A stretch of DNA of 64,000 bases from Squalus acanthias (Eukaryota), in NCBI GenBank assembly GCA_030390025.1, contig CM059431.1, positions 121,832,001-121,896,000 of the forward strand, given 5' to 3'. The notes under the pieces are model-generated. The model was not told the DNA's origin. It searched no databases and saw only the letters and a list, made by a program, of their open reading frames with translations. The position numbers and the translations under genes are program-made. How positions within the stretch are numbered: the first letter of the stretch is position 1; every line of letters starts with the position of its first letter. This document shows positions 5,277 to 46,909 of the stretch, in pieces.

Positions 5277-7096
5277 ATGGAGAGGGTGAGAGAACGAGCT
5301 CAGCGCTTCAGCGAGCGGGCCTTGGAGGTCCAGGTTGGCGCAGTGGAGCGCAGAAGATCTATACTCTACCCTGAGAGTGGCAGGAGGCCTTTGCCGCGCG
5401 ACTACAGAAGAGTGTGGAGGGAGGTGGCTCACAACGTCTTCTCCAGGAGCATGGTGCCCAGGGCCCATACTCAATGTCGAAAAAAGTTCAACGACCTCAC
5501 TCGGGTCGTCAGGGTGAGTGACTTTTTTTCAATACCTCTCCAACCCTCCATCTCAACCTCACTCAATGGCCAGAGGGTCTTAAAACCCCAATGCCCAACA
5601 CTCATCCAACACCTATGGCCCTCTCATGAAACACACACGCACATTCCACATTTTGCATACAGTAAAGGCTAGTCACCTATGGGAGGCAGATCAGGCAAGA
5701 TCATGGCTGCATACAGTAAGGGCTATTCAATTATGGGAGGCACATCAGGCAAGACCATGGCTGTATATTTACTCAGACGCCGTCCTTTTTCTTGCAGGCC
5801 AAGGTATCTCATCATAGGAGACAGCAGCAACGGATGGGTGGAGGGTGGCCTCAGCTCCAACCCCTCAGCGAACTTGAGGCGCGCGTCCACAGGATTGTGG
5901 CAAGCCAGGTGATCGGTCCCGTTGCCCCTGGAGAGGCCGACCCCGTTCTGGACAGCAATAGTAAGGTCATCACCTTTTTGTCCTCTCTCCTTCCACTTGT
6001 CCCTCACAACACCAGCCCTTGACACTTTCAATCCAACTTATAAATCGCTGCACTCATTGCTCCCTCACTGCCCCCCTGTTCTGACGCTAAAGCCACTCTT
6101 GTACCTCCCTGCTTTCAGATGGTGATTCACCAGCTGAGGAGACGGGTCCTCAAGATGCCAGTGGGAGTGAAGCCTGCAGGCGAGGAGGAAGAGGAAGCCG
6201 GAGCATCAGCGCCACCCTCTCCCGAGGAAGCCCATGCCCACACTGGGAACATGCCTTCCCTGGAGGGGAGCAGGGGGGAAGGGTCTGATGAGGGTGAAGC
6301 TCCAGGACCCAGTGGGCTGCAGCAACGCGATGGGGGTAGAGAAGCTCGGGGGCCTTCTCCCCAGAGGGAGAGTAGGCCAGCGAGTCCTGCTGCACTGGAC
6401 GCAGAGGAGGTGCGGCTCATCGCTGAAATGAACACCCAGGCGGTGAACATGCACACTGAGCTCATGGGTGCAGTGGGAAGGGTGCCCAAATGCAGTGAAT
6501 CACTGGCAAGGAGTGTCGAGCACTTCACTGTAGCACAGGCAGATGCCATGCTAAAGCTTAGTGCTGCAATTCAGTCACTGGCTGCCATGAACCCATCTCA
6601 GACTGCTCTCATGCAGACTCAGATTGAGGTCGCGCAAGCAATGACTGCTGCCATTCTCGCTGGTTCGGACACATTTCCCCGGGGCTCTCACCACGCCGCA
6701 GCAGACCAGCAATCTGTGCTCCAGCAGATTACTCCGGATGCTGATGTGCTGCCCCATGGGAGTGCCAGTGTGCCGGTCGAGCAGGGAGTTGCTGTCCTCT
6801 CTCAAGATAACAGCATTCCTGCTGCCACCACTGTCACTTCCCCATTGCACTTGCCACCGCCTGTAGCCCAGACTGCTGCCGTCCATGCAGAGTTGGTGCA
6901 GTCTGCAGCCGGACCCTCCAGGTCCAGAGCTGGTCGAGGCCGTCCTTCAAGGGCATCTGCAGTCTCAGGTTCTGACAATCAGCAGCCTTCCACCAGCCTT
7001 GCTGCAGCCACTGGGGCCCCATTATGGAGGAGCAGTAGGGTGGGAAGGGGGGAAGTGCGCAAGGGAAGGAGATCACCCTTAGAGGGCAAAAAGTAG
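5277..7096 (+). pseudogene. Harbinger Myb/SANT-like DNA-binding protein gene, 3 exons (5277-5513, 5798-5960, 6119-7096)
   Basis: RAQRFSERALEV...WREVAHNV...QCRKKFNDL trihelix motif. GT-AG sites at 5514/5797 and 5961/6118. Probable frameshift near 6180. Confidence 0.8.
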
Positions 7097-16974: not shown

Positions 16975-17096
16975 GTTTGATTTAAACCGTTGAGTTCTTT
17001 GCCTTCTACTTTTGTTTTTCTCCTTCCTGTCTTTTGCTTTTATCCTTATTTCCCTTTCCTCTGTCTCCCTGCTCAGGTTCCCAACCCCCTGCCACT

Positions 17097-18047
17097 TTAG
17101 TTTAAACCCTCCCCAACAGCACTAGCAAACACTCCCCCTAGGACATCGGTCCCGGCCCTGCCCAGGTGCAGACCGTCCCGTTTGTACTGGTCCCACCTCC
17201 CCCAGAACCGGTTCCAATGTCCAAGGAATTTGAATCCCTCCCCCTTGCACCATTCTTCTAGCCACGTATTCATTTGAAATATCCTCCTATTTCTACTCTG
17301 ACTAGCATGTGGCACTGGTAGCAATCCTGAGATTACTACCTTTGAGGTCCTCTTTTTGAATTTACCTCCTAACTCCCTATATTCTGCTTTTAGGACCTCA
17401 TCCCGTTTTTTACCTATATCGTTGATGCCTATGTGCACCACGACAACTGGCTGTTCGCCCTCCCCCTCCAAAGTGTTCTGTAGCCGCTCCGAGACGTCCT
17501 TGACCCTTGCACCAGGGAGGCAACACACCATCCTGGAGTCTCGATTGCGGCCGCAGAAACGCCTATCTATTCCCCTTACAATTGAATCCCCTATCACTAT
17601 AGCTCTTCCACACTTTTTCCTCCCAGCCTGTGCAGCAGAGCCACCCATGGTGCCAGGAAGTTGGCTGCTGCCGCCTTCCCCTGATAAGTCATCCACCCCA
17701 ACAGCATCCAAAGTGGTATATCTGTTTGACAGGGGGATGGCCACAGGGGACCCCTGCACTACCTGCCTGCACCTCTTACTCTGCCTGGTGGTCACCCATT
17801 CACTTCCTGCCTATACACCCTTTACCTGCGGTGTGACCAACTCGCTAAACGTGTTATTCACGACGTTCTCAGCGTCGCGAATGCTCCAATATGCATCCAT
17901 CCGCAGCTCCAGCGCCGCAATGCGGTCCGTCAGTAGCTGCAGCTGGATACATTTCCCACACACATGGTCGTCAGGGACACAGGAAGTGTCCCTGATTTCC
18001 CACATATTGCAGTAGGAGCATATCACGGCGCCGAGATCTGCTGCCAT
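17097..18047 (-). pseudogene. CR1 ORF1 (CxxC zinc finger, leucine zipper, SGNH esterase) with a single premature TAG
   Basis: ORFs 17811-18047 and 17097-17795 are in the same frame, separated by one TAG. Motifs CSYC...CGKC, IGDSIVRG, HIGIND and DGLHL. Confidence 0.87.
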
Positions 18048-19119: not shown

Positions 19120-21010
19120 ATGGCTATGGCTGTTCCCACTCCCAGGGAGAGAGCTCGTCGGTTCACAGACGTGGCATTGGAGGCATTGGTGGCTGGAGTG
19201 GAGCAAAGGAGGGCATTGCTGTTCCCGGCCACTGGAAGGAGGCCATCGCCTCAGGTGTTCAGGGCAATGTGGAGGGAAGTGGCCCAGGAGGTCTCGGCCG
19301 GTAGTGTGGTTGAACGCAGCCTGACACAGTGCCATAAGAAATTCAACAACCTCAGTTGCGTGGTCAAGGTGAGTACGTGCTTCAACAGTTACTACATACC
19401 AGCACCTGAACCTCAGTCTGTGCACACTGCGCAAACAACCACACCGCCACCACTCACCCACCAAACATCTTCATCTACTCAAACACACATCCACATCTCA
19501 CACCTTGCCTACAATCACAGCTATTCAACGACAGCAGCAATATCTCCCAAACACATAGCTGGACTCTGACTCAAATACATTTGTTTCTCTTGCAGGCCAA
19601 GATGGCCCACAATAGGAGGGAGCAGCAGAGAACAGGTGGGGGTGATGCGCAGCTCTCAGACCTTGAAGAACGAGTGCTGTGACTCATTGGGCAGCAGACG
19701 GTAGGCACAATGGCCGTCGGCGACGTCGACCCCATTGAGGGCAAAAACGGTAACTTCAGCCCCTCTCCTTCTCTCATCCCACGTCCCCCTCACACCACAA
19801 ACCTTTCTCACTTTCCACCTCCTGAGAATGTCTGCATTCCTTGCTCCATTCCTGCCCCCCTCCCCTCGTGAGTCTTGTGCCTTTATACTTTCAGATAATC
19901 AGCAACCAGATGACCAGCCTATCCCTGAGCCCCCCACTGAGAGTGAGGAAGGAGAAAAGGAGGAGGAGCAAAGCACCGCGTCACTGAATCTCTCACCCGC
20001 AGGCACCAACTCAGATACTGGCACTACGCGATCTTTAGAGGCAAGTTTTGTAGAGGGGTCTGCACTGGGTGATGCACTGGGGACGAGCGGGCTGCAACAA
20101 GGCCAGGGGGAAAGGATAGCTCGGGAGGCAGGTCTCCGGAGGGCGAGTTCGCACGTGACTTCTGCTGCACAGGACTCAGATGAGGACCTCGATGGGGAGG
20201 CGTTCACAAGAAGGGTGATGGCCATGCACACTGAGATGATAGGCGCAATGGCAAGGGTGCCCGAGAGCCTCTCGGCAATGGTAAGGAGCGTGGAGGAGTC
20301 TGCCTCCAACATTGCACAGAGCTCTGCGTACACCATGGAGCGCATCATTTCCACTGTGCAGAGGATAGTGGACTCCCAGGGAGACCGTGTGGATCCAGAC
20401 CTCATGTCGCGTGTCATGGATGATGTCGCAGCTTCCATTGCAGCACAGTTGGAAGCGACACAACGTCTTTGTGCTGTAATGCAGTCAATGGTTGCTGCCA
20501 TCGAGTCTCAGACTGCTCTCATGCAGTCACAGCTTGATGCCACAAAAGATCTGACTGCTGCCATCGGCGCTGGGTCCACACAAATCGCCGGGGATCTCGC
20601 GGTGTCGCAGCAGGCCAGCAACCTGTGCTCCAGCAGATTGGGTAGGGATGCTGAAGTGCTGCCCCGGGGGAGTGGGAGTGGGTCAGGGGAGCAGGAATCT
20701 GCTGTCCTCTCTCAGGATGACGGCATTCCTGATCCCACCACTGCCACTCCGCCATTGCCCTTGTCGCTGCCTGTCATCCAGCCAGGCCAGACTGCCGCCG
20801 CCCAGCCTGAGGTGGTGCAGTTTGCAGCCGGGCCTTCCAGGCACAGAGTTGGTCGAGGGCGTCCCGCAAGGCCATCTGTAGTCTCTGGCACCGATACTCA
20901 GTAGCCTTCCACCAGCCCTGCTGCAGCCACTGGGGAGACACTACGTAGGAGCAGTAGATTAGGAAAGGGGGCTGTAAAGCAGGGAGGCAAGGGTTTGCAT
21001 AAGGGTGATT
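19120..21010 (+). pseudogene. Harbinger Myb/SANT-like gene, 3 exons (19120-19368, 19596-19749, 19895-~21010)
   Basis: RARRFTDVALEALV...WREVAQEV...QCHKKFNNL motif. GT-AG introns at the same positions as in 5277-7096. Premature stops. Confidence 0.8.
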
Positions 21011-21189: not shown

Positions 21190-22371
21190 AAGTCTGATGA
21201 GGCGGTCACAGACCGACCTTGCAGAACACCGATTGAGCAGCTGTCTCCCCTGTCGCTGATGTTCGTCGTCCTGTTCCTCCTGCTCCTCTTCTTACTCTTC
21301 CTCCTAGTCCTCATCCTTGTTCTCCTCCTCCTCCTCCTGAGGTGGTGGAGTTATGCCTGGTGGCAATGGCTGCACCCTCATAATGGCCAAGTTATGCAGC
21401 ATGCAGCAGGCGACGACGAAATGTGACACCCGCTCAGCTGAGTACTGGAGGGCTCCTCCCGAGCGATCAAGACAGCGGAACCATTGCTTGAACACTCCGA
21501 TGGTCTGCTCAATGATGTTCTTGGTGGCAGCATGGCTCTCATTATATGAGTGCTGGCCAGGTGTGCTGGGGTTGCGGAGGGGAGTCATGAACCAGGTGGA
21601 GAGCGGATAGCCCTTGTCTCCCAGCAGCCAGCCGCGAGCTTGATGTGGTGGCTGGAACAAATTTGGCACACTGGTCTGGCGCAGGGTGAAGGCATCGTGG
21701 CTGCTGCAAGGATAGCAGGCATTGACAGTCAGGATTTGCTGCGTGTGGTCACACACCAACTGCACATTAAGTAGGTGGTAGCTTTTGCGGTTACGGAATA
21801 CCTCAGGATTGTTCTGAGGTGCCCGCAAAGTGACGTGGGTGCAGTTAATGGCGCCTTGCACCATTGGAAAGCCCGCTATCCTGGAAAAGCCACATGCACG
21901 CTCGCGCTGCTTCTTTCTGGTCATGGGGATGGAAATGTGGTCCCTTCTCCTTCTGTACAGAGCATCTGTGACCTGGAGGATGGAGCAATGGACAGAAAAC
22001 TGGGAGATGTTGGAGATGTTGCCTGTCACACACTGGAATGATCCGCTGGCATAGAAATTGAGGGCGACGGTGACCTTGACTGCCACTGAGAGAGCCATGG
22101 TGCTCCTGATCTAAGGCTCGAGGTCTGGCTGCAGGAGGTGGCAGAGCTCTGTGATCACGTTCTTGCTGAAGCGGAGCCTTCTAACACACTGGTCCTCAGT
22201 GAAATTCATGCGGGGGAACTGCTGCCAGAATACCCTGGGTGGGTAAGGCCTCCTGTTGAGCGCCCTGTTGGCCCTCCTACCTCTGGCCACATTTTGCACT
22301 CTTTCTCTGTGCCTCAGTTGCCTTCGACATTGACGCTGGAGAGCGAGGTCCAGTGCCAGTACAGCCCCCAT
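21190..22371 (-). pseudogene. Harbinger transposase, disrupted
   Basis: ORFs 22111-22410 and 21304-22098 are in frame across a stop. GAINCTHV, GDKGYP, IEQTIG and CCMLHNL motifs. Confidence 0.9.
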
Positions 22372-24327: not shown

Positions 24328-24614
24328 AACTTTGTTACATTTTTACATTTCTAAGTCTTATTCTTAATCCAGAATATCCACCAAAATCAAATAAAAGTAC
24401 CGTTTGATCCCCGAGACTCTAAGAGTTAAAAACTTACAGAGCCTGCCTCTGAAGCTGAGAATCGCCTGCCCGTTCCAGCGACTTCTGACTTCCTATCTGA
24501 AAATCCCATATCTTATACTCTTTTTGCAGTGGTATCCCCTTTGAAGTTTTCTGCTGATGTAAGCTAATTATCTTTAGTCATTCTTTCTGTTGACTTCTTT
24601 CTATTCTTACCATT

Positions 24615-26280
24615 TGTAGAATTCGCAATATATCGCGATTTTATTAATAAGGAGAAAACACAGAGTTTCGTTCAAACAGCTTTTATTTCAGTAGAATGCT
24701 GGCAGGTTTAAAGTGGACACAAGCAGCCTGTAAAATGGCCGCCGCACCTCGTGACAGAACATTCTAGACTTTTCAACAGGCAGACAAGATGGCGTTCCAA
24801 TAAACATTTGTGCAAGATCGATTAAGATTCAGCACAGTGAAGATAATACACGAGACATTATGGGTTTGCAGTATACACATAGATACTGAAATCGGTCTCC
24901 CAGGTACAAAGGAAAGCCATTGTACCGAGTAATCAAGGGCCCATCCAAAAGACATTAATATGTAAAATCCCAACGACTCTACGATGAGAGAGCCGTTAGC
25001 AGGTAGTTATACAGGACACTTGGAAGCCCCAAACCCCTCCAGGGAGATTACCGACCGATTTAACAATGGGAGAAATATTAACAGGTACTCAGACATTTAC
25101 GAGTAGCCCCGAAACCCATTAAGAACGGAGATCACCCATACAAGACATTTGAGCGCCAAACCCTAAACAAAAGAATGGACATTATAGTTGGGCGGGAAAC
25201 GGAAGATTTTGCACTATAATTGCAGGCTCCAAACTGTCCATTCTTTCTCTTGCTGCTCTTATCATCGTGGCTGCTCCTGTGCTCTTATCCGGTCGATTCG
25301 TAACCTCGTGGCTGCTCCTGTGTACTCGTAGTTGGGCTCGCTCCTGCTTGCCTGTTGCCTCTTCTGAAAAGACTGTTGAACTTTCTGATCCGTTCGGATC
25401 TATCTCGTGTCGCGTAACGAAGACCTATATTGGTAACCGGTATCGGAACCAAAAGGCCCGAGAAGAGATGAGATGAGATGAGATGAGAAGAGAGGAAGAC
25501 CATATCCATCGCCATGGTCAGTAAATCCCGACCGCGCCTGTAGGTCGATTAGCCAAGTTTTCCTCGCCAGGAAGACTTCTTCGAACTTGCAAGGAAACAT
25601 ATCGTATCGACGATATCGACAACTGTGCTCGAAGAGTACCTGTTAAACCAACCAATATAGATCTTCATCACAGCAGACGTTCCAGCCTGCTAGCCGGAGC
25701 AGCAGAAGCAAGTAAACAAGTGGGACCAGGAGATCTCCTGACCGACACGTGGGTGCTGCGGTGAAAAGCATCCGATCAGCTATTCGGAATTTCTCCGAGT
25801 TATCACGAGTGGTGAGCATGAGTCTCGAAATCCTACGAATCTAGTTTAGGATAGATATTGATAGGGGAGGGTTTAAGGATTAAGGATATTTGTAATGTGT
25901 GCCCCTATTTACTTTGTGCCGTTCGTTCCTCGTTTCCCTAAGATCGACTATATAACTGTTTGTAAGATTGTACTGTCATTAATCTGTGCTTATGACATGT
26001 ATTTCATAATCTTAAGTATCATGCAATAAAGATTTTCCATTTCGTACCATTCAAACCAAGTCTACATGAGTTTCATCTCCATTACTGCTCTCGCATCTAA
26101 GTCCAGTGTCTAGAACCGTAAGGGAGAGTGATTCGAACCACTCACAGGTGTGTCTAGTGTTCCCAGACTGGCTGGAGACCAGAACAGGCAACAAGGCCTA
26201 GACCCGCACTGACATACAGGCTGCACAGAGCCGCGTGAATCTCACAGGCTGCGAGACACGCAGGGTCAGAATCCCTTACA
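24615..26280 (+). repeat. 5' LTR (1666 bp)
   Basis: TGTAGAATTC...CCCTTACA, a direct repeat of 35709-37374. TATA-like TATAAT at 25215 and AATAAA at 26025. Confidence 0.97.
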
Positions 26281-26284
26281 GAAA

Positions 26285-28096
26285 ATGGCGACCGCGGCAG
26301 GACACTGGCAGCGAGAGGGTAGTGTGTTAGATTTTGGAATGACTGTACGAAATGTTATGCAGGAAAAGATAGCGGATTATGTGTTTGGAAAGGTTAATCT
26401 AACTAAGAAATGGATAAGTGAATTGTTAGCGGATAAGAGCCCACTAGAGGCAGCTGAAAGGTGGACAGATAGTAAAGAACATAGAAAGACACTTGAGAAA
26501 GCAGTCTGGCTTATGTGTTACAAAAGGCAGGTTCAGATTTCAAACCAGACCATTACAGCGCTAGTAGCTCGAATCAGTCATTTAGAGGGAGAAATGGAGG
26601 AGAAGGTTTCTGGAGGGGAGGTGCTCATTAAGAATTTAAATGAGTTACACCAAGAAAGCCAGGAAGTCTCCAGTCACCTTAAAACAAGGATAGATTATCT
26701 CGAGTGCCAGGTCACTGAGGCAAAATTGAATGAGAGCAGGTTAAAGGAAAGATGTAACCGCCAAGCTGCCCAGATAAGAACTCAAGAAGAGAGCTTGACG
26801 GGGGTTAGGGCGGCATATAAGTTGGCCCTTGAGGATAAGTTTCAGGGAGCCGATCATAGCGCCTGCCAAAGGGAGATAGAGCACCTCAAAAAGGCCGTGA
26901 ACAATGCGAACGGCATGGTGTGCCTTATCAATCCGTCGGCGCACCAGCCGCTAGTAAATGAGAGATTTAGAAAATCCCCACCAAGTAAAGCAGAAGGAGT
27001 AGTAGTCACTGCGCCCTCCGCGCCACCCAGCTATTCAGAAACCTGGGTTAGGGAGGAAGCAATGGAAGAAACAAAAGAGCCCATTGAAAAAGAAGTAGGA
27101 AAGGGATCGTTATATCCAGTAACGGATATTAAAAGGGGCCCAAGCAGAAACGGTGGGGAAGAACCGGGGGATCTCCTCGGACAGCTGGTGTTGCCTCACA
27201 GTTCACATCAGCTGAGAGCTATGATAAATCACGTACGGAAGCTGACCGAGGCAGACGACCCTTCCGTACATTTCAGAGAAGTTGAGCAAGCCGCAGCCAT
27301 TAACGGCTGCGATGATGGGGAAACAGCAAAAATGCTGCTGTTCTCATTAGACAGCTCGGTCCTTCAGTGTCTCTCAGGCGAGAGCAAGAGGGGAACCAAG
27401 AGTTATGAGGAATTAAAGAATGAGGTCCTGGAAGTGTTGGGGGCGAACGACGAAGGTCCGTTTGCTAGAGTGGGACAGACAGTGCAGATGGAGGGAGAAC
27501 CCCCGAAGGTTTTTGCCGACAGGCTGTGGCCAGTATATGAGCGCAGCTGTCTAGGTGCGCCCGAGCGCGAAGATGTGGAAGGTTTAGCTTTAACTCATTG
27601 GCTTAGGTGCATAATAGCCAACAGTTTACCAGCCGTCAGAGAGCAGGCAAAAGCATGGTTTGATCCCAATGACCCCAACATTACGGAAGAGTCGGTCTTG
27701 AATCGACTCACGTTAGGTTATCGCAATATAAGGGGTATGGCAACACGTCCCCTTAAGGGAAGAGTACATGAGGTACGACCCGCAGCCCCGTATCAAAGAG
27801 AGTGGCATCAGGAGGGTAATCGCGCCCCACAGGCAGGTAATGCTTGTTACGGGTGTGGGAAGACAGGGCACTGGCGCAAGCATTGCAGGAACCCTTGGAA
27901 GGATTCCAAGGATAAAAATCCCGCGGTCCGAGCCCAGGCGCCTGTCCCGGCTAAGGAAGCCAAGGCACCCACCCCTCCTGACGACCTCGAAGCAGTGTTA
28001 GGAGCCATGCGCAAGCTGGTCTTGAATGCGCGTGGACAGGTGGCGGTCGCAACCGGCCCCGTAGGTGCCGCAGGACCGTCTAATAGTACCCCATGA
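26285..28096 (+). CDS. gag: Gag polyprotein (coiled coil, late domains, capsid-like region, CCHC nucleocapsid); true start may be the ATG at 26340
   Basis: 603-aa ORF immediately after the LTR. CYGCGKTGHWRKHC zinc knuckle. QMEGEPPKVFADRL resembles a major homology region. Confidence 0.9.
   Translation: MATAAGHWQREGSVLDFGMTVRNVMQEKIADYVFGKVNLTKKWISELLADKSPLEAAERWTDSKEHRKTLEKAVWLMCYKRQVQISNQTITALVARISHLEGEMEEKVSGGEVLIKNLNELHQESQEVSSHLKTRIDYLECQVTEAKLNESRLKERCNRQAAQIRTQEESLTGVRAAYKLALEDKFQGADHSACQREIEHLKKAVNNANGMVCLINPSAHQPLVNERFRKSPPSKAEGVVVTAPSAPPSYSETWVREEAMEETKEPIEKEVGKGSLYPVTDIKRGPSRNGGEEPGDLLGQLVLPHSSHQLRAMINHVRKLTEADDPSVHFREVEQAAAINGCDDGETAKMLLFSLDSSVLQCLSGESKRGTKSYEELKNEVLEVLGANDEGPFARVGQTVQMEGEPPKVFADRLWPVYERSCLGAPEREDVEGLALTHWLRCIIANSLPAVREQAKAWFDPNDPNITEESVLNRLTLGYRNIRGMATRPLKGRVHEVRPAAPYQREWHQEGNRAPQAGNACYGCGKTGHWRKHCRNPWKDSKDKNPAVRAQAPVPAKEAKAPTPPDDLEAVLGAMRKLVLNARGQVAVATGPVGAAGPSNSTP
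26286..26303 (+). promoter_or_regulatory. Primer-binding site (tRNA-Ser-like, imperfect)
   Basis: TGGCGACCGCGGCAGGAC begins 5 nt after the LTR. It resembles the complement of tRNA-Ser 3' ends (TGGCG...GGCAGGA). Confidence 0.65.
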
Positions 28097-31000
28097 CTAG
28101 AACCGGCGCAGCCCGTCTACCTGTGTCCGCTTAGCTATGACGCGTGGAGGCGACCTGTGGTGGAGATGGAGGTAGAGAAACAGAAGGGTAGTTATTTGTT
28201 GGACACGGGAGCTTCTTGCACCATAATCCATACAGATAACCCTTTCGACTCGCCGCTATCTACCAAGGTCCCATTCACGTTAGCAGGGTTCACAGGAAAA
28301 GAACAGGCTGGCACGTTTTCCCTTCCGCTATCCATTCGTTTAGGAACACTTCGCCTTAAGTGGAAGTGTATACTGATGGCATGGCAAAAGGGGGGTGGAA
28401 GAGGTATCCTCGGGTCCGATCTCCTAGCGGGACACGGGATCCTCGTGGACCTCAGAAATCACTGTCTCTGGGGGGCTAAAGGTGAAAAAGGCGAGGTAAT
28501 AGTGATTCCGGGGGAGGAAGAAACAGGGGTCCTGTGTACCGTACAGCCATCCGGAGGCTACGACCTCAGGCTTATGGTCGCAGATGTCCCAACGGACATG
28601 CAAACGTACGTGTCAGATAATATGCACGCGTTTGCAACCCACAAGCACGATTGTGGGAGAGTGGTCGGGTTTGAGGTCAGCGTAGATGGGGACCCCATGA
28701 CCCGACCCCAAAAGCAGTATAACTTCCCCAAAGAAGCAGAACCCGATATGGAGACAGCAATGTCCTCCTTGGTGCAGCAGGGCGTGTTGAGGCCAATAGC
28801 CACACACGTAAACTCCCCATTATGGCCGGTTAGGAAGCCGGATAATTCGTGGAGGGCCACGGTGGACTACAGAGTCCTTAACAGTAACATTCCCGCCTGC
28901 GCGCCCACAGTAGCAGCAGTTGCTGACCTAATAGGGAGCATCCCAGCGTCCGCGACCACGTTCACGGTGCTGGATATCTCGAACGGTTTTTGGTCCATCC
29001 CGCTGCGGCGAGAGGACCAGTACAAGTTTGCCTTTACTTTCAAAGGACAACAGTACACATGGAACTGTCTGCCACAGGGTTTCCACAATAGCCCCAGTAT
29101 TTTTCATCAGTGTATGGCAGGAAGTTTAAAGGAGTTTAGTCAGCCCAATCAGATAGTACAGTATGTGGATGATTTGCTCCTATTTACGGACTCAAGGGAG
29201 GAGCACGGACCACTACTGGACGAGTTATTGGAGCTGTTAGCGAGAAAGGGTTTTAAAATAAACCCTAAGAAAGCACGTATCGGTCAGCGGGAAGTAAAGT
29301 TCCTGGGACTGACCATACGCGCTGGGGAAAGAGCCATAGACAAAGCAAGGAGGGAGTCGGTGCAAGAATTACCGATTCCCAACAACGTAAGGGGTGTGAG
29401 GTCCTTCTTGGGACTGACCGGTTACTGCAGGGATTTTATCGAAGATTATGCGGCCACAGCGGCGCCGCTCCTCCGACTCCTCCATAAGGGGGTGGAGTGG
29501 CTTTGGGACGAGGGCTGCCAAGCAGCCTTCGAGAAGTTAAAAAGGGATCTGCAGACCGCGCCAGCCTTAGGGGCCATAGATGGGGGGAAGGAGTTTTTCC
29601 TGGAGGTCGCTGCCAGCGGAGACAGCTTAAGCGCCGTGCTGCTCCAAGAGCGTCACGGCAAGCTGAGGCCGGTTGTCTATTCATCCAGGGTATTAACGGA
29701 TGTGGAGAGAAGTTTCTCCAATTGCGAAAGGCACCTTTTAGCCACGCATTGGGCTGTGAAAAGATCAGCGATCTTCACAGGGCTCTCTCCCATCACTCTC
29801 CTCACACATCACACACCAACTAAGATGCTTCTGGATGGGAGGATTAAAGACGGGACCGTAAGCAGCGCACGCATTGCGCGTTGGACCCTTCTTCTCTCCC
29901 AGTTGGATCTTAGAGTAAAAGGTCTTTGCGAGCCAAGGCTTGCGGCCAATCTGGTATACCCCGGTACAGCCCACCGGTGTTCGGTGGAAGGGGTGTGGGA
30001 CGTCAACATAGGTTTACGGGCCGGGATACATCCCACTGGGCGCGAGATTTATGTTGATGGGTCTAGCACAGTATCTGCTGGCGAGCGACTCACAGGGTGT
30101 GGAGTTTATGACCCTGCGGCAGACCTTGCCCTGGCGATCAAGCTCCCCAGCACTATGAGCGCGCAGCAAGCCGAGCTGTCTGCCGTGGTGTACGTTGTGA
30201 CCCACCCAGACATTTTCCCAACCCCATATACGATTTGCTCGGACAGTATGTTCACCTGCAATTCGTGTACGGAATACCTGGCCATTTGGTCCCGCCGCGG
30301 ATACACCTCCGCGGACGGGCGACCTTTGACGGTGAAGCCCTTGCTGGAAAAGATCTTAGCAGCAGCGGTGGGGGAGGAAGGAGAGATTTTCATCCATAAG
30401 GTGAAAGCTCACTCCTCCACAGAGCCCCGTGGGGAGGGCAACCGGCAGGCGGATGCGCTAGCCAGGGAGGGTGCCCGCGACGGCACTTTCTGGAACCCCT
30501 ATAGGACCGGACCCATAGCAGCGGTCCGAGGCGGGGACGGGATTCCCGGGAACACCAGGGTAGCATTGCCCCTAGACCTCAAGACCGTCCAAACCCAGGA
30601 TCCCGCCCTAAAAGCAGTCCTAAAAACGATTGCTGAAGGGAGGCAGGTAGAAGGTCCGTACAGTACGGCAACCCTCTCAGTTAAGGAAGGCATGCTGTTC
30701 CGCGAGGAGCAGTGGGTTGTGCCACAGCAGCACAGGAGGGAATTCCTCCAGTTGGCTCACGAGGGACCAGGGGCAGGGCACCCCGGGCCCGAGGTTACCT
30801 GGCAACGGGTAGAGCAAGCGGGATGGTGGCCAGGGCTCAGGGAACAAGTCCGCGAGTTCTGTGCAAACTGTCTTGTGTGCGCTGCAAACAACCCAGACCC
30901 CCAGAAAAGGAAGGTGCCCATGGGACACGTAAGAAGGGTAGAGGGACCATGGCAGTCGATACAGATCGACTATATAGGACCCCTGCCCACCACCCAGGGA

Positions 31001-32593
31001 GGTTATAAGTACTGCCTCGTCCTGGTGGATGTGTTTTCCAAGTGGGTGGAAGCCTTCCCTTGTCGAACAGCTACGGCACTGGGTACAGCAAAAATCTTGG
31101 TCCGGGAAGTGTTCTCGCGGTGGGGACTCCCCCGTTTTGTGGAGTCAGACCAAGGGAGTCATTTCACCGGCCAGGTGATGCAGAACACCCTCATGCTTTT
31201 GGGCATTGAAGGGAAGTGGCACGTAGCACACAATCCCCAGTCATCCGGGATTGTTGAACGTATGAACCGGACCCTGAAGGAGAAATTGAGGAAAGAGACT
31301 AGGAACTCGCCCCAAAAATGGGCGGAAGTTCTGCCTTTAGTCCTCATGGGGGTCCGGGCCAGTCAGTCAAAAAGTACGGGGTACTCCCCGCACGAGGTAA
31401 TGACTGGGAGGCTCATGCGAACCCCCACCCATGTGCTAGCACCGGTGCTCACTGAGGGTCAGCTCCAAGAGATAAGCAGGGACAAGTTCGCCCAGACTCT
31501 CTTGGAGCGCCTGAAGCAAGTTTATGAGCAGGCGGCTGGGAACATGGGAAGGCAGCATCAGGGCAATCGCTTGTTGCTGGAACCCCGCAAAACGCGGGAG
31601 TGGGAAGTAGGAGACCAGGTCATGGTCAGAAACTATGCCAGAGTAGGGAGTCTGGAACCACTGTATATGGGACCCTACAACATTGTAGACAAGGCGAGTC
31701 CCATGGTTTACGCCGTAAAAGTACCTCGGCGCACTAAGTGGTTCCACATAAACCAATGCAAACTGTACCAGCCAGGTGCGCAGGGGAAAACTACAGGGGT
31801 AAATCCCGCCAATGGGAAAGCACAGCCCCAGGTAGGACCACAAGGCACACAGGCAGGCATAGCAGCTTGCATCAGGGGAAGGGACATCCCGGACGATCAT
31901 GCAGCGTTTTTCTGGAATTGGGGGTTAGATGAGGAAGAATTCAGGGTACCCGGGTCAGATGAGGATAGTGCAGATGAGGATAGTGATGACGACGGGTGGT
32001 TTCGGAGGAACGGTCCCTTTTACGATATGGAGGGGACGGGGGCTGCAGGTAGAGATCCACACAGGGTGGATACACGAGCTGCAGGTCCCGAAGACAGGAG
32101 GGAGGAGCTAGAGGAGGCAGGGCCAGCCGCTATGGGAGCACAGAGAGTACCGGTGTGGCTCCCAGAGATGTGGCCGCCCGCTTTGAACGTCCAGTCCTCA
32201 GGGGAGGCAGAGATCACGAGTGAAGGGCCGCCTGCTGGGCCGAGCAGGGCGGAGCCACGAACTGCCAGCCCCGAGGTTAGGGAGGCGGAGTCAGCGGAGG
32301 CGGAGCCAGCGACTGTGATGGAACCCCAGGTCATCCCGATGGAAGTCTCGGAACCCGGTCCGTCCGTCACGGAAACCCCGCCCATAGCAACTCCCCGTAG
32401 GTCAAGTAGAGAACCCCAGCCCAGGAGGATGTGGTCATGTCCCCAGACTGCCCCAAGGCGAAAATTTAAGGTTAAGATAACCCAGATACAGACCGGCCAC
32501 ATCGCAGCAGTAACAGGCTGCGGCAGATCAGAGGGAAGGGTCAGTGCCCTCCCACCGTCGGGAAGAGCTCGCAGCAGCCTTCTCAGAATTTAA
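28097..32593 (+). CDS. pol: Pol: protease, RT, tether, RNase H, integrase and C-terminal extension; in frame with gag
   Basis: LLDTGAS; LPQGF and YVDD; IYVDGSS..AQQAEL..SDS..GNRQAD; H-H-C-C, QIDYIGP/SDQG/VERMN and GPY module. No stop from 28097 to the end. Confidence 0.95.
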   Translation, partial: LEPAQPVYLCPLSYDAWRRPVVEMEVEKQKGSYLLDTGASCTIIHTDNPFDSPLSTKVPFTLAGFTGKEQAGTFSLPLSIRLGTLRLKWKCILMAWQKGGGRGILGSDLLAGHGILVDLRNHCLWGAKGEKGEVIVIPGEEETGVLCTVQPSGGYDLRLMVADVPTDMQTYVSDNMHAFATHKHDCGRVVGFEVSVDGDPMTRPQKQYNFPKEAEPDMETAMSSLVQQGVLRPIATHVNSPLWPVRKPDNSWRATVDYRVLNSNIPACAPTVAAVADLIGSIPASATTFTVLDISNGFWSIPLRREDQYKFAFTFKGQQYTWNCLPQGFHNSPSIFHQCMAGSLKEFSQPNQIVQYVDDLLLFTDSREEHGPLLDELLELLARKGFKINPKKARIGQREVKFLGLTIRAGERAIDKARRESVQELPIPNNVRGVRSFLGLTGYCRDFIEDYAATAAPLLRLLHKGVEWLWDEGCQAAFEKLKRDLQTAPALGAIDGGKEFFLEVAASGDSLSAVLLQERHGKLRPVVYSSRVLTDVERSFSNCERHLLATHWAVKRSAIFTGLSPITLLTHHTPTKMLLDGRIKDGTVSSARIARWTLLLSQLDLRVKGLCEPRLAANLVYPGTAHRCSVEGVWDVNIGLRAGIHPTGREIYVDGSSTVSAGERLTGCGVYDPAADLALAIKLPSTMSAQQAELSAVVYVVTHPDIFPTPYTICSDSMFTCNSCTEYLAIWSRRGYTSADGRPLTVKPLLEKILAAAVGEEGEIFIHKVKAHSSTEPRGEGNRQADALAREGARDGTFWNPYRTGPIAAVRGGDGIPGNTRVALPLDLKTVQTQDPALKAVLKTIAEGRQVEGPYSTATLSVKEGMLFREEQWVVPQQHRREFLQLAHEGPGAGHPGPEVTWQRVEQAGWWPGLREQVREFCANCLVCAANNPDPQKRKVPMGHVRRVEGPWQSIQIDYIGPLPTTQGGYKYCLVLVDVFSKWVEAFPCRTATALGTAKILVREVFSRWGLPRFVESDQGSHFTGQVMQNTLMLLGIEGKWHVAHNPQSSGIVERMNRTLKEKLRKETRNSPQKWAEVLPLVLMGVRASQSKSTGYSPHEVMTGRLMRTPTHVLAPVLTEGQLQEISRDKFAQTLLERLKQVYEQAAGNMGRQHQGNRLLLEPRKTREWEVGDQVMVRNYARVGSLEPLYMGPYNIVDKASPMVYAVKVPRRTKWFHINQCKLYQPGAQGKTTGVNPANGKAQPQVGPQGTQAGIAACIRGRDIPDDHAAFFWNWGLDEEEFRVPGSDEDSADEDSDDDGWFRRNGPFYDMEGTGAAGRDPHRVDTRAAGPEDRREELEEAGPAAMGAQRVPVWLPEMWPPALNVQSSGEAEITSEGPPAGPSRAEPRTASPEVREAESAEAEPATVMEPQVIPMEVSEPGPSVTETPPIATPRRSSREPQPRRMWSCPQTAPRRKFKVKITQIQTGHIAAVTGCGRSEGRVSALPPSGRARSSLLRI

Positions 32594-32905
32594 AGGGGCC
32601 GCCCTGAGAACGGGCGGCACTGTAAAGTTATAGTTCTAAGTTTTAAGTTTATCGTTCAAGGTTAAGTTTTAAGTTTATAGTTCAAGGTTAAGTTTATAGT
32701 TTTATTAAGGTTAAGTTTGTAGTGTTTTTAACAGAAAACGATAAAATGATGGGAGCTTTAAAGATAGGTTTAGTGAAAAGTTTATACAGCAAACGTGGAA
32801 GTTTACGTGAGGCGAGGTCAGGGGACCCGCTCACCCTTCACAGAAGCCAGAGACTCTTGCGAGGCTGGCTACCTCATTCTATCTGATCACAGGAACCAAG
32901 GAAGG

Positions 32906-35257
32906 ATGGAACGAATTCTAGTATTGCTCGTGGCAATCGGATGTGGATTGGCCTATCGAGGCCGCACCAAGGATGTCGTGGTGTTTGGATGTTCCGGGGA
33001 CACGGCCCCCATCGCGGTGGATGGGACCGGAAGACGGGAGGCAGAGGAGACCAGCACCTATTTCCACAAGGGAAGGTGGCCAGGATGGCTGGGAACGAAC
33101 TCAACGGAGTATTCCAGCACATCGGGGTTTGCCTACAAAGAGACTTCTTTACTGTGCCCCAAAGTAAGGATCATCGCACCCAGGATCAGCGTCACCGTCG
33201 GCAAACGGATTTGTTTGACTTGTAGTGGGAAGGTCCCATTGAGCCGATGGTGGTGGCTGCGAAAGCTGAGCAAAACTATGAGGAACTCTTCGGTCGAGTG
33301 GGAACGACTGGGTAATAATACCCATCGGACAATTACGGGGACAGACGGACAAGTGAAAGTCTGTTGGGACAAATGGTGGGAACCGGATGAGGGAATTTAT
33401 GTATGTATGTGGGGGTCAAAGTACGTTTGCCCCAAAGGCATCTCCATATTTTTTATTAATCAATGGCAGGATAACGGACAGGGGATGAGGTGGGATGCGA
33501 GCACCAGGGGGTGCGGAGCCCCATTCTCCCCGATCCCAGTAAATGCCACTGAGCTCATTACGCGCCCACGCAAAGCCCCGCCCACGATTCCGGTGGTTCT
33601 AGCTGAGGAAGAAGGGTGCCCTAAAACTAGTAAGGGACCCGGGAATGGTTTGGTACTGGTCCCCACAGACCAGATACTATTTCAGGGGGTACATTACGCG
33701 GTGGCCTCGGTGATTTTAAATCTCACCGAGGTGCGGTTACCAGAGTGGTGCCCCAAAAAGACGGAACAGTTGTACCAGGTCCTGTTGACCAAGATGTTCA
33801 GACAATTTTACGAATTCGATTTCGCGGAAATTGATAAAACAAGTTTGTACACCGCACCACAGGAAGTTTTGGATCAAGTAGGGAGGCAAAGAAGGGGTTT
33901 GGTGAACGATGCGTTCACTGCTTTTAACACAGGTACATCTGTGGTCAACGCTCTAGACAGTGTGGAGCTGCAGACCCAGATTAATGGTTTAAAGACACAA
34001 TTAAAGGACATTCTAACAGATGAGAATAAAGTGGTAGGGTCGGGTCTACACGAGGACCAAGCCATGACCCTCCATTTAAAGGAAATTATAGCAGAGTTGG
34101 AGAAACATGCAAAGACGGTAAATGCCCTGATTAGGGAAGATCGGAATGCATCCGATCAAGCTGCGCAGAACGAGGTGTGCGTGCTTTACGGGGCGTGGTT
34201 ACTGGGCGAGGGCCGCAGTAATTTGGAGGATTTAAAACAAGGTTTGGTTCCGTCCTGGATAAGTAACAAACACCTGCGGGAGCTCCACCCTTTTCAGAAC
34301 GCATTAAGTCCATGCCAGCTCAGGCTAGCTTCAGAAGCATACCCAGTCCCCGTGGACTGCGGACGTTCAAACCATACTATTATGGGAATAGTATTACGTA
34401 TGCCGGTTTTGGGCGACACAGCAAAGCCCGCCCCGGTGTATCGGGTAGAGAACATTGGTGTCATTCAGGGGGGAGCCCACATTCGTTATGCAGCGGTTCC
34501 ACCTTACGTCATCCGCTGGGAGCAAACGATGACAGGTACAGATCTCTCTGGTTGTCGTGGCAGGGGAGCACACATAATACTGTGCCCCCAGCACTTGAAT
34601 GCCTTTTTAACACCACAGTGCGGGTTCAGAACGACTGGCGCCAAGTCCATGAATTGCACCATGGAGGCAATGGCACAAGATCATGTGCCTCCGCAGGTAG
34701 CATACATCGGGGGTGGAACATATTGTGTTACCACTGCAGCGCAACACTACCAGCATGGAAACCGTAGCCGGTGTCCGGTGAGTGACAGCAGTTTCTGTTT
34801 TAAACCCAGGGCGGAAGTTCAAGTAGCACAACAGCGAATTATCCCAATCCCTGAACCATCCACTGTTCATCTCACAGTAAAAGAGAATTTCACCGACTTG
34901 CAGCGATTCGTCGCGCATTTTGGATACCTCATTCCCCCTCTCCCTGAACACCTCACCAAACTTCTAAAAGCCGTCGCGGTGTCACAGAAACATTTTTACA
35001 CATTAGAGCAGAAAACTGTCGAAATAGGAACAGACATTCTGGATATAGTAGTTCCACCGTGGTGGAATCTGTTCACTAATATTGAAGTACCTTCATGGAT
35101 CAGAATAGCCTCCCACATTTTAGTCGTATGCCAAGTTTTCATTGTAGTGTACCTATTGGTTGTACATTGTAAAAGAGACAAACGCCTCACCAAGCATGAA
35201 AACACGGGAGAGTGGCGAGAACGTTACGTGCGCGTGCACGATGAGAGCACCGTGTAA
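32906..35257 (+). CDS. env: Envelope glycoprotein (783 aa): signal peptide, Ig-like domain, RQRR cleavage site, class I fusion subunit, TM anchor
   Basis: MERILVLLVAIGCGLA signal, several NxS/T sequons, RQRR|GLVNDAFTAF, heptad repeat, Cys-rich region and TM ILVVCQVFIVVYLLVV. Splice acceptor CACAG ends at 32892. Confidence 0.88.
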   Translation: MERILVLLVAIGCGLAYRGRTKDVVVFGCSGDTAPIAVDGTGRREAEETSTYFHKGRWPGWLGTNSTEYSSTSGFAYKETSLLCPKVRIIAPRISVTVGKRICLTCSGKVPLSRWWWLRKLSKTMRNSSVEWERLGNNTHRTITGTDGQVKVCWDKWWEPDEGIYVCMWGSKYVCPKGISIFFINQWQDNGQGMRWDASTRGCGAPFSPIPVNATELITRPRKAPPTIPVVLAEEEGCPKTSKGPGNGLVLVPTDQILFQGVHYAVASVILNLTEVRLPEWCPKKTEQLYQVLLTKMFRQFYEFDFAEIDKTSLYTAPQEVLDQVGRQRRGLVNDAFTAFNTGTSVVNALDSVELQTQINGLKTQLKDILTDENKVVGSGLHEDQAMTLHLKEIIAELEKHAKTVNALIREDRNASDQAAQNEVCVLYGAWLLGEGRSNLEDLKQGLVPSWISNKHLRELHPFQNALSPCQLRLASEAYPVPVDCGRSNHTIMGIVLRMPVLGDTAKPAPVYRVENIGVIQGGAHIRYAAVPPYVIRWEQTMTGTDLSGCRGRGAHIILCPQHLNAFLTPQCGFRTTGAKSMNCTMEAMAQDHVPPQVAYIGGGTYCVTTAAQHYQHGNRSRCPVSDSSFCFKPRAEVQVAQQRIIPIPEPSTVHLTVKENFTDLQRFVAHFGYLIPPLPEHLTKLLKAVAVSQKHFYTLEQKTVEIGTDILDIVVPPWWNLFTNIEVPSWIRIASHILVVCQVFIVVYLLVVHCKRDKRLTKHENTGEWRERYVRVHDESTV

Positions 35258-35696
35258 TCGGAAAATGGCGTCACTCCCGCTCGCCACGTGCGCCGCGGAA
35301 GCCTGTACTCATATAAGATTTTCAGAGATTGTAAATACGTTGGGAACTCGACATGTTTTAAGAGTTGGTGTTGATTATTTTATGGTGATGGTGTTACAGT
35401 TAGAATTGATTGTTTGGTTTTGGGTTCTGTTTCTCCTTTCCCTGAATAAAAGATGAATATACAGGTGATACGAGAGGCATCGGCCTGGTTACGCCGGGAA
35501 GGAAAACAAGTGGTGTAAGTTTAAGGGCAAATAATGCCTACGGTGATATAAAATGTAATTTCTTGGGAAATGAGGACGACACAGAGACCCTAGCTAGGTT
35601 AAAGTTATGGGATTAATTTGCTGGATTCGGGGAAAAATCGAGATAATATTGCTCACCACTATGATTTTTGATACGATAAGCGGAGTTATTCGCATC

Positions 35697-35708
35697 AACA
35701 GGAGGGAC
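35697..35708 (+). promoter_or_regulatory. Polypurine tract
   Basis: AACAGGAGGGAC lies directly before the TG of the 3' LTR. Confidence 0.7.
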
Positions 35709-37374
35709 TGTAGAATTCGCAATATATCGCGATTTTATTAATAAGGAGAAAACACAGAGTTTCGTTCAAACAGCTTTTATTTCAGTAGAATGCTGGCAGG
35801 TTTAAAGTGGACACAAGCAGCCTGTAAAATGGCCGCCGCACCTCGTGACAGAACATTCTAGACTTTTCAACAGGCAGACAAGATGGCGTTCCAATAAACA
35901 TTTGTGCAAGATCGATTAAGATTCAGCACAGTGAAGATAATACACGAGACATTATGGGTTTGCAGTATACACATAGATACTGAAATCGGTCTCCCAGGTA
36001 CAAAGGAAAGCCATTGTACCGAGTAATCAAGGGCCCATCCAAAAGACATTAATATGTAAAATCCCAACGACTCTACGATGAGAGAGCCGTTAGCAGGTAG
36101 TTATACAGGACACTTGGAAGCCCCAAACCCCTCCAGGGAGATTACCGACCGATTTAACAATGGGAGAAATATTAACAGGTACTCAGACATTTACGAGTAG
36201 CCCCGAAACCCATTAAGAACGGAGATCACCCATACAAGACATTTGAGCGCCAAACCCTAAACAAAAGAATGGACATTATAGTTGGGCGGGAAACGGAAGA
36301 TTTTGCACTATAATTGCAGGCTCCAAACCGTCCATTCTTTCTCTTGCTGCTCTTATCATCGTGGCTGCTCCTGTGCTCTTATCCGGTCGATTCGTAACCT
36401 CGTGGCTGCTCCTGTGTACTCGTAGTTGGGCTCGCTCCTGCTTGCCTGTTGCCTCTTCTGAAAAGACTGTTGAACTTTCTGATCCGTTCGGATCTATCTC
36501 GTGTCGCGTAACGAAGACCTATATTGGTAACCGGTATCGGAACCAAAAGGCCCGAGAAGAGATGAGATGAGATGAGATGAGAAGAGAGGAAGACCATATC
36601 CATCGCCACGGTCAGTAAATCCCGACCGCGCCTGTAGGTCGATTAGCCAAGTTTTCCTCGCCAGGAAGACTTCTTCGAACTTGCAAGGAAACATATCGTA
36701 TCGACGATATCGACAACTGTGCTCGAAGAGTACCTGTTAAACCAACCAATATAGATCTTCATCACAGCAGACGTTCCAGCCTGCTAGCCGGAGCAGCAGA
36801 AGCAAGTAAACAAGTGGGACCAGGAGATCTCCTGACCGACACGTGGGTGCTGCGGTGAAAAACATCCGATCAGCTATTCGGAATTTCTTCGAGTTATCAC
36901 GAGTGGTGAGCATGAGTCTCGAAATCCTACGAATCTAGTTTAGGATAGATATTGATAGGGGAGGGTTTAAGGATTAAGGATATTTGTAATGTGTGCCCCT
37001 ATTTACTTTGTGCCGTTCGTTCCTCGTTTCCCTAAGATCGACTATATAACTGTTTGTAAGATTGTACTGTCATTAATCTGTGCTTATGACATGTATTTCA
37101 TAATCTTAAGTATCATGCAATAAAGATTTTCCATTTCGTACCATTCAAACCAAGTCTACATGAGTTTCATCTCCATTACTGCTCTCGCATCTAAGTCCAG
37201 TGTCTAGAACCGTAAGGGAGAGTGATTCGAACCACTCACAGGTGTGTCTAGTGTTCCCAGACTGGCTGGAGACCAGAACAGGCAACAAGGCCTAGACCCG
37301 CACTGACATACAGGCTGCACAGAGCCGCGTGAATCTCACAGGCTGCGAGACACGCAGGGTCAGAATCCCTTACA
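35709..37374 (+). repeat. 3' LTR (1666 bp)
   Basis: Direct repeat of the 5' LTR, with four transitions seen by eye. Followed by CATT. Confidence 0.97.
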
Positions 37375-38110
37375 CATTAGTTCAGCTGCTAACTCTCAGA
37401 ATCCTGTCTGCTGTATAGGTGTTTAATAACTTATCATATAAAATGTTATTACAGATTTATCTCTTTGATGCCATTCTTATGAAGGTCTTCAATTCAATTC
37501 TTAATATCCCCTTAACTGGTTATAAGCAGACGTTATGTCTACTAACTGTTCCATTTTCAATGCAAACACAATGTGATTGCTTGGTGTCATCTTCAAAGTG
37601 TTCTGTAGGTATTATATTTACAATATGTAAATCAAAACCACTTCAACCAGGGTGTTCCATGCATTTCTTAGCTACTTCAATTGGTTGTATTTATAATTGT
37701 GTTTCCCTTTTCATTTGATGTTACTTTTACAAAGGCACATGGTTTTTTAATGTTCTGTGTTTCTGTTCGAAGTGTTATTTTTAGCACTTTAAACTGGGTA
37801 TAGCATTGTGTTGGTTCCAAACTGCAGACTCCTTGGAAGAAAGCCTTTGCTTCTTCGATAGGACCATTGTCTCAGTGTCAATAACCATTTCCCATTTCAA
37901 AAGCTTGTATGGTGTCTACAGCTTTGTGTCAACAAGCTCATCTTATCTCAGAAGCCTGTATTTACAGCTTTGTGTCATTGAGGCTTTTAGATTTTTAAAC
38001 CCAGTTTGTCATATTTTAATGTCAGAATTCTGTTCATAGGATGGTGTATTTTTCTGAAATATGGCTATTCCTTTACAACGGGAGGCGCAAAGGAGCCCAA
38101 TATTTAGCCC

Positions 38111-46594: not shown

Positions 46595-46909
46595 ATGCTG
46601 AGATGCCGGTGTTGGACTGGGGTGGACAAAAGTGAGAAGTCGCACAACACAAGGTTAAAGTCCAACAGTTTTATTTGAAATCACAAGCTTTCGGAGCTGC
46701 TGCCCCTTCGTCAGGTGAAGTGAAGGAATACGAATCGGCAAAGCATATATAGACAGACATGTCTATATAGACATGTCTGTCTATATATGCTTTGCCGATT
46801 CGTATTCCTTCACTTCACCTGACGAAGGGGCAGCAGCTCCGAAAGCTTGTGATTTCAAATAAAACTGTTGGACTTTAACCTGGTGTTGTGCGACTTCTCA
46901 CTTTTGTCC
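46595..46909. mobile_element. Penelope-like inverted (hairpin) insertion with hammerhead cores
   Basis: 286-bp palindrome at 46624-46909 with a CTGACGA...GAAAGCTT core in each arm. Flanking 13-bp repeat TCCTTTCTCATTG. Confidence 0.8.

Follow-up and report, generated by a model that had tools for sequence, protein, structure and literature searches.

An intact endogenous retrovirus (ERV) of the shark Squalus acanthias appears to make its Pol protein by reading through the stop that ends gag, at a UGA-CUAG signal of the type known from alphaviruses and cellular genes. The element lies at 24615-37374 of the 64,000-nucleotide stretch analyzed here (hereafter the window; assembly GCA_030390025.1, contig CM059431.1, positions 121,832,001 to 121,896,000, forward strand), and its gag, pol and env are all unbroken. 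Judging from the sequence, the gag-pol junction is best explained by UGA-CUAG readthrough that yields a 2102-residue Gag-Pol, with a probability of about 0.8. Readthrough is the most likely route because gag and pol share one frame, no ATG precedes the protease, no slippery site lies upstream and the stop stands in a leaky context. An initial annotation of this DNA had proposed the same route, and the frame, the protease start and the leaky context support it.

Gag and pol are separated by a single in-frame UGA-CUAG

The junction involves three features:

26285-28096, plus strand: gag, 603 residues, identified as an open reading frame and by relatives
28094-28100, plus strand: TGA-CTAG, the gag stop in a type II readthrough context, from the sequence and the motif class of PMC13517186
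28097-32593, plus strand: pol in the gag frame, 1498 codons, with the catalytic protease Asp at 28202-28204 and the first ATG at 28166

The letters at the end of gag are CCA TGA CTA GAA, with the stop at 28094-28096 and CTAG directly behind it, as the initial annotation had read them. The gag frame is open over 26213-28096, and the same frame reopens at 28097 and continues to 32593. It begins LEPAQPVYLCPLSYDAWRRPVV and runs without a stop into LLDTGAS, as claimed, with the catalytic Asp at codon 36; the open stretch counts 1498 codons. Translation from the ATG at 26285 through the stop would give 603+1+1498 = 2102 residues, in agreement with the approximately 2100 first suggested. The junction consists of this one stop within one frame, and all other frames are closed. 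No slippery site was found upstream of the stop in 27701-28300. Frameshifting was rejected, given that gag and pol share a frame and that the sole slippery-like site lies after the catalytic codon.

Type II readthrough signals are defined as UGA followed by CUA or CGG (PMC13517186). The shark junction has this context, together with an in-frame downstream coding region that lacks a usable start of its own. It does not have the gammaretrovirus-type signal of UAG-G, a purine-rich spacer and a pseudoknot: the stop is TGA, followed by CTAGAACC (pseudoknots were not part of the predictions made). CTAG accounts for 18 of the 8969 4-mers of the element (0.2%), while in-frame CTA followed by G makes up 0.4% of pol codon pairs and CTA or CGG 1.7%. 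The 7-mer TGACTAG alone is common, occurring 6 times on the two strands of the 64-kb window; what is unlikely is its placement exactly at the gag stop.

Published work supports the leakiness of this context. Four human UGA-CUAG genes are read through in human cells, an effect that deletion of CUAG abolishes and for which approximately 12 downstream bases are enough; conservation of the AQP4 extension reaches as far as cartilaginous fishes (PMC4132726). Of 256 tetramers CUAG performed best, CUAA being the only exception; 764 of 765 four-base variants lowered readthrough, and CUAA alone raised it, in one gene, with context effects that differ strongly between genes (bioRxiv 10.64898/2026.07.14.738498). 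UGACUAG gives at least about 1.3% readthrough, and downstream structure is only conditionally needed (PMC13517186).

We propose the following mechanism. Full-length proviral RNA would be translated from the gag ATG, and most ribosomes would stop at the UGA at 28094, releasing the 603-residue Gag. We infer that a few per cent would decode the UGA with a near-cognate tRNA, owing to the following CUAG, and would go on through protease, reverse transcriptase (RT), RNase H and integrase to complete the 2102-residue Gag-Pol. The residue inserted would probably be Trp, Cys or Arg, as is the rule at UGA. The outcome would be a high ratio of Gag to Pol and the carriage of Pol into particles, as in gammaretroviruses, with the alphavirus and cellular type II signal substituting for UAG plus pseudoknot. 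A downstream stem-loop may contribute, and Env would come from a separate spliced RNA.

The first ATG of pol lies inside the protease

The first ATG of pol is codon 24 (28166), which is equivalent to residue 13 of HIV-1 protease. An ungapped alignment pairs pol codons 16-48 with residues 5-37 of HIV-1 protease, in stretches that match weakly (E 7e-6 with tethered dimers, 3e-3 with a monomer), and in Pfam the retroviral protease model (RVP) begins at codon 17. Translation from codon 24 would yield a protein without the first 12 residues of the protease, among them the N-terminal dimer strand. Translation of Pol must therefore begin upstream of this ATG. The gene-called relatives P0034-P0037 start 4-14 residues ahead of the catalytic Asp, which suggests that gene callers truncate such Pol proteins inside the protease.

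These data bear on a foamy-like route, in which Pol would come from a spliced or internally started RNA and the TGA would be an ordinary stop. The RT, RNase H and integrase match foamy-virus structures well, and Env is F-like, for which foamy Env is a precedent (PMC11468914). At 28134 a candidate acceptor contains 15 pyrimidines within 20 positions, against 14 at the env acceptor, and the gag-pol junction of the Candida albicans element Tca2 holds a minor promoter (PMC2194720). However, the acceptor at 28134 is followed by an out-of-frame ATG, the first in-frame ATG being the one inside the protease, and all five ATGs of the first exon are closed before the splice donor in the long terminal repeat (LTR). 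The env splice was observed, and among the 15 of 18 joints listed none leads to the start of pol (rare forms are lost from contigs). In foamy viruses pol has its own start in another frame, whereas here the frame is that of gag. The shark Gag carries a CCHC knuckle, which foamy Gag is not known to have. We regard the foamy-like route as quite unlikely.

The protein encoded by pol comprises protease, RT, tether, RNase H, integrase and a tail of approximately 270 residues. The tail (31790-32593) is acidic, rich in proline and without a Pfam match; the Pol of frog relatives ends directly after integrase. On the minus strand the tail region is overlapped by two open frames, of 162 and 189 codons.

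Relatives of the shark Gag end at a similar position

Gag has a coiled-coil N-terminal part and one CCHC knuckle that ends 69 residues before the stop. Its ATG at 26285 has a strong start context and overlaps the primer-binding site, and the start MATAAG is common to the relatives P0005, P0009 and P0017. We compared Gag ends in five full-length knuckle-bearing proteins out of 30 Gag hits. P0004 (45% identity) ends 68 residues past the knuckle, compared to 69 here. P0005 and P0052 (39%, one cluster) end 64 residues past it, and P0053 ends alike.

A shared stop position argues against a family with fused gag-pol in which this copy acquired a private nonsense change. In favor of such a history, labels of fused gag-pol genes stand on 10 of the 24 lokiretrovirus entries, and the gene model of a coelacanth relative is fused as well: it is in frame from gag, has Gln at the stop position and matches pol codons 9-36. 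We do not treat the coelacanth model as a real sense-codon allele, as it may be edited or spliced. The shark copy is very young and otherwise unbroken, and CTAG would follow a random stop with a chance of 0.2-0.4%. Because three reading frames are intact and the LTRs are 99.8% identical, a chance nonsense change is unlikely. A comparison of four sequencing runs gave five differences common to all runs within 27836-28246, none of them at 28094-28100; this is weak evidence against a fixed change at the stop, as it covers 40 of 1490 rows and 32 of 2028 pieces, and one piece ends at 28087, so that the stop is not shown bridged. Taken together, we find a private nonsense change highly improbable.

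Most visible unfused lokiretrovirus junctions carry UGA-CUA at the end of gag

We read by eye the junctions visible among the 24 pol entries in the lokiretrovirus supplement of Wang and Han 2021 (PMC7947760). In addition to the ten labelled as fused, one more looks fused, and in five (Aro, Lch, Lca, Ape and Rca) the junction is not visible. Among the eight visible unfused junctions, gag ends in TGA-CTAG in four (Ofa, Cne, Pyo and Sau) and in TGA-CTAA in three (Bsp, Dcl and Lro); Tfu has TGN-CTAA. The pol frame follows the gag stop directly in six of the eight. Bsp stays in frame up to the conserved block ahead of the protease, after which it slips; the frame of Tfu ends before its annotated pol. 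These viruses differ in the codons that precede the stop, and their tetramers CUAG and CUAA are the two favored in bioRxiv 10.64898/2026.07.14.738498. The eight junctions are related and do not represent eight independent origins.

Conservation of TGACTAG across copies and relatives had been named in advance as a check on the shark signal. TGA-CTA is indeed present in 7/8 visible unfused lokiretrovirus junctions; within the shark element's own family the check reaches the stop position, through the proteins of relatives, with weak evidence from reads. The main text of PMC7947760, as far as accessible, does not contain 'readthrough', 'read-through' or 'stop codon', nor does the accessible text of PMC9040795. 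In that of PMC12440569, 'read-through' is used for transcripts only.

RNA folding downstream of the stop

Folding of the downstream RNA, another suggested check, yielded two alternative stem-loops, neither of which is unique in the element:

28103-28163, plus strand: candidate stimulator hairpin, predicted, +7 to +67 past the stop
28134-28284, plus strand: alternative predicted long stem-loop, +38 to +188 past the stop

The hairpin shows high pair probabilities in short folds, and its 70-nt window has a z score of -2.4; scores below -2 also occur in 21% of 42 background windows. The long stem dominates the 200-nt fold with a z of -5.1, the second lowest of 44 windows, of which five fall below -4. 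A 104-nt fold was no better than shuffled sequences (z -0.56), and significance depended on the window chosen. These models indicate that a downstream stimulatory structure is possible. Other 200-base windows of pol also fold strongly (28497, 29697 and 30697-31096; z -4.3 to -5.7).

If the stop were bypassed through distant RNA elements or another non-standard route, CUAG would be incidental. Tca2 offers a precedent (PMC2194720), the long stem-loop at +38 to +188 is able to form, and the effect of readthrough context varies strongly from gene to gene. Lokiretroviruses nevertheless keep TGA-CTA amid differing flanking codons, an indication that the motif itself matters, and we consider a bypass of this kind very unlikely. 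Recoding of the UGA as selenocysteine, or its removal by A-to-I editing, is the least probable of the alternatives. One fold pairs the bases just before the stop, and the U of the stop, with +71 to +77. However, no selenocysteine insertion (SECIS) element was among four Rfam hits (E up to 1) over 24500-37500, and the rows listed for two probable RNA runs contain no change at 28096, which is weak evidence against editing.

The element is likely SnRV-like

In a published alignment of the RT core, the shark element is identical to snakehead retrovirus (SnRV) at 36 of 47 positions by eye, compared to 25 for feline foamy virus (FFV) and 20 for MuLV. From these sequences the element is likely SnRV-like. 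An RT tree of 18 Pol hits and the shark element, which had no SnRV row, placed the element on a long branch beside two epsilon-like rows, in a clade (99/100) that also holds frog and coelacanth proteins named 'NYNRIN-like'. The loki-like proteins P0043-P0045 form a separate clade (99/98), and their RT motifs differ too (P0043 and P0045 matched by eye to the published alignment). A lokiretrovirus identity, which the tether plus RNase H and the F-like Env had brought up, was dropped on the RT tree, the RT motifs and the SnRV identities.

SnRV has a coiled-coil Gag and an Arg primer site. The primer-binding site of the shark element (26286-26303) is presumably complementary to the 3' end of tRNA-Arg(UCG); a literature search with its string found no paper. 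We take tRNA-Arg(UCG) to be a near-cognate reader of UGA also, and a link between the Arg primer and UGA reading is speculation. SnRV-like ERVs have been described in the elephant shark (PMC4422223) and the coelacanth (PMC4977317). The junction of the elephant-shark SnRV-like sequence is not readable; another CmiERV shows an in-frame TGA-CTC by eye. An RT alignment of 412 invading ERVs, which is trimmed, had no match to three RT motifs of the shark element.

Comparison with known readthrough systems

Readthrough at an in-frame gag stop is known in retroviruses. Gammaretroviruses such as MoMLV resemble the shark element in reading through a single in-frame stop and in making env by splicing, and differ in their UAG, purine spacer and pseudoknot. 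The initial annotation drew this contrast, and the UAG-pseudoknot part holds, but it overstated the surprise, because an in-frame UGA has already been described for fish and frog retroviruses. SSSV, ZFERV and the Rhinella marina ERV have in-frame UGA gag-pro junctions at which readthrough is assumed; their contexts are UGAAGA, UGACGA and UGAAGU, and none is a type II hexamer (PMC13517186). XtERV-S also has an in-frame TGA between gag and pro, again with readthrough assumed (PMC8278194). As described in PMC13517186, epsilonretroviral readthrough is without experimental verification, and measurements of readthrough in retroviruses cover only the UAG-pseudoknot type, with the signals of fish and frog viruses unknown. 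What is new in the shark element is the CUA(G) context.

Type II readthrough of SINV and CHIKV and of AQP4, MAPK10, OPRK1, OPRL1 and MDH1 uses the same UGA-CUA(G) core with a possible downstream stem-loop. The type II users listed in the accessible part of PMC13517186, a 2026 review, include no retrovirus, whereas here the signal would control a retroviral polymerase. Literature searches and the accessible part of the PMC13517186 table gave no report of UGA-CUA in a retrovirus; most subscription papers and Repbase notes lay outside this coverage. The accessible parts of PMC12193657, PMC10435555 and bioRxiv 2023.10.26.564294 hold nothing on the junction.

Several points weigh against readthrough at the shark site, in addition to the frequency of comparable folds in other windows. 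SnRV is the closest named virus, and its junction is UAG-GGC (PMC13517186), compared to UGA-CUAG here. Tca2, a copia element of Candida albicans, has the same one-frame gag-UGA-pol arrangement in an unrelated lineage, and in a reporter its junction alone did not bring about readthrough (PMC2194720). Being a different lineage, the lokiretroviruses back the type of signal, not the shark site. The proteins of Gag relatives fix the position of the stop but not its letters, P0004 comes from a 2078-base contig and may be cut, and two distant Gags (25-26% identity) end 39 and 47 residues past the knuckle.

The SnRV-like clade, to which CmiERV lineage I of the elephant shark belongs, shares the arrangement of gag and pol in one frame with one stop. 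Unlike SnRV, the shark element shows no 3' accessory open reading frame. Lokiretroviruses share the tether plus RNase H, the F-like Env and the TGA-CTA gag end, but their RT groups apart, its motifs differ and they have no SMC part. Judged by these sequences, a signal of the alphavirus type is present in two deep lineages of retroviruses. UGA-CUA(G/A) readthrough might be ancestral at the retroviral root and kept in lokiretroviruses, the sister group, and in the SnRV-like shark lineage, with UAG-pseudoknot, frameshift, fused and spliced modes arising later; we consider this doubtful. Independent origin of the six-base motif is likelier, because SnRV has UAG-GGC and many lokiretroviruses are fused. 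If the ancestral account were true, the host decoding leak of AQP4 and MDH1 would have set retroviral Gag:Pol ratios since early vertebrates. Readthrough at the shark and lokiretrovirus junctions is predicted to depend on the four bases and perhaps to be pseudoknot-free. Such a result would bring the alphavirus and cellular signal into both of these lineages, and the succession of Pol-expression modes could then be placed on the tree.

Env is produced by the usual splice

In one contig from a probable RNA run, the LTR donor at 25811 is joined to an acceptor at 32893 with GT..AG ends. This is how retroviruses usually splice env. The Env protein carries a weak immunoglobulin-like (Ig-like) domain, an RQRR cleavage site, a fusion part resembling paramyxovirus F and a membrane anchor. 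The fusion part scores 0.93 against a PF00523 (paramyxovirus F) cluster in a feature search, which is a single source; searches of Pfam and PDB gave no sequence-level hit for this likeness. The Ig-like domain at 33140-33500, ahead of the F-like part, matches Pfam Ig_3 at E 0.022 and gives weak antibody light-chain and JAM-A hits. A weak Ig match is also found in the frog relative P0035, after its integrase.

Layout, age and copies of the provirus

The element has the Retroviridae order of LTR, primer-binding site, gag, pro, pol, env, polypurine tract and LTR, with RT, tether, RNase H and integrase in sequence:

24611-24614, no strand: target-site duplication CATT, second copy at 37375-37378
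24615-26280, plus strand: 5' LTR, 1666 bp, TG...CA, with a TATA-like box at 25215 and AATAAA at 26025; 4 mismatches to the 3' LTR
25811-25817, plus strand: splice donor G/GTGAGC within the LTR, from the contig joint to the env acceptor
26286-26303, plus strand: primer-binding site
32906-35257, plus strand: env, 783 residues, with the splice acceptor at 32892/32893
35697-35708, plus strand: polypurine tract
35709-37374, plus strand: 3' LTR

The LTR pair differs at 4/1666 bases (0.24% divergence). With rates from PMC4422223, this divergence corresponds to an age between approximately 0.5 million years at the mammal rate and 5.5 million years at an assumed shark rate. The TATA-like box and AATAAA imply an R region of approximately 800 bases (25245-26050) that contains the splice donor and several upstream ATGs.

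At least half of the family's words were present in 20 of the 24 sequencing runs listed, from nine studies and six coded organisms. Contigs of runs X6 and X11 carry internal deletions across 27059-31749, for example from 28128 to 31749, and represent defective family members. Three Env relatives were found, from skate and sawshark, and one Gag relative is from catshark, which makes a cartilaginous-fish host probable on the sequence evidence alone. Scans of viral contigs, metagenomes and prokaryote genomes for related loci gave nothing usable (two distant fragments in metagenomes were not used). No longer junction-spanning protein was found at E 1e-4, in a search that is weak by the tool's own note, and two structure predictions were low (pLDDT 33 and 32).

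The surroundings of the provirus are a field of LINE and DNA-transposon remains. A LINE on the minus strand (14113-17810) has a 1002-residue endonuclease-RT frame and, upstream of it, an esterase-like (GDSL) frame. At 21304-22110 (minus strand), 6044-7096 and 19705-20904 lie a frame for a DDE_Tnp_4 transposase and two long, related frames that have no clear match in Pfam. Two long, near-perfect inverted repeats, at 46624-46909 (143 bases) and 52275-52677 (196 bases), are made of a repeated element end.

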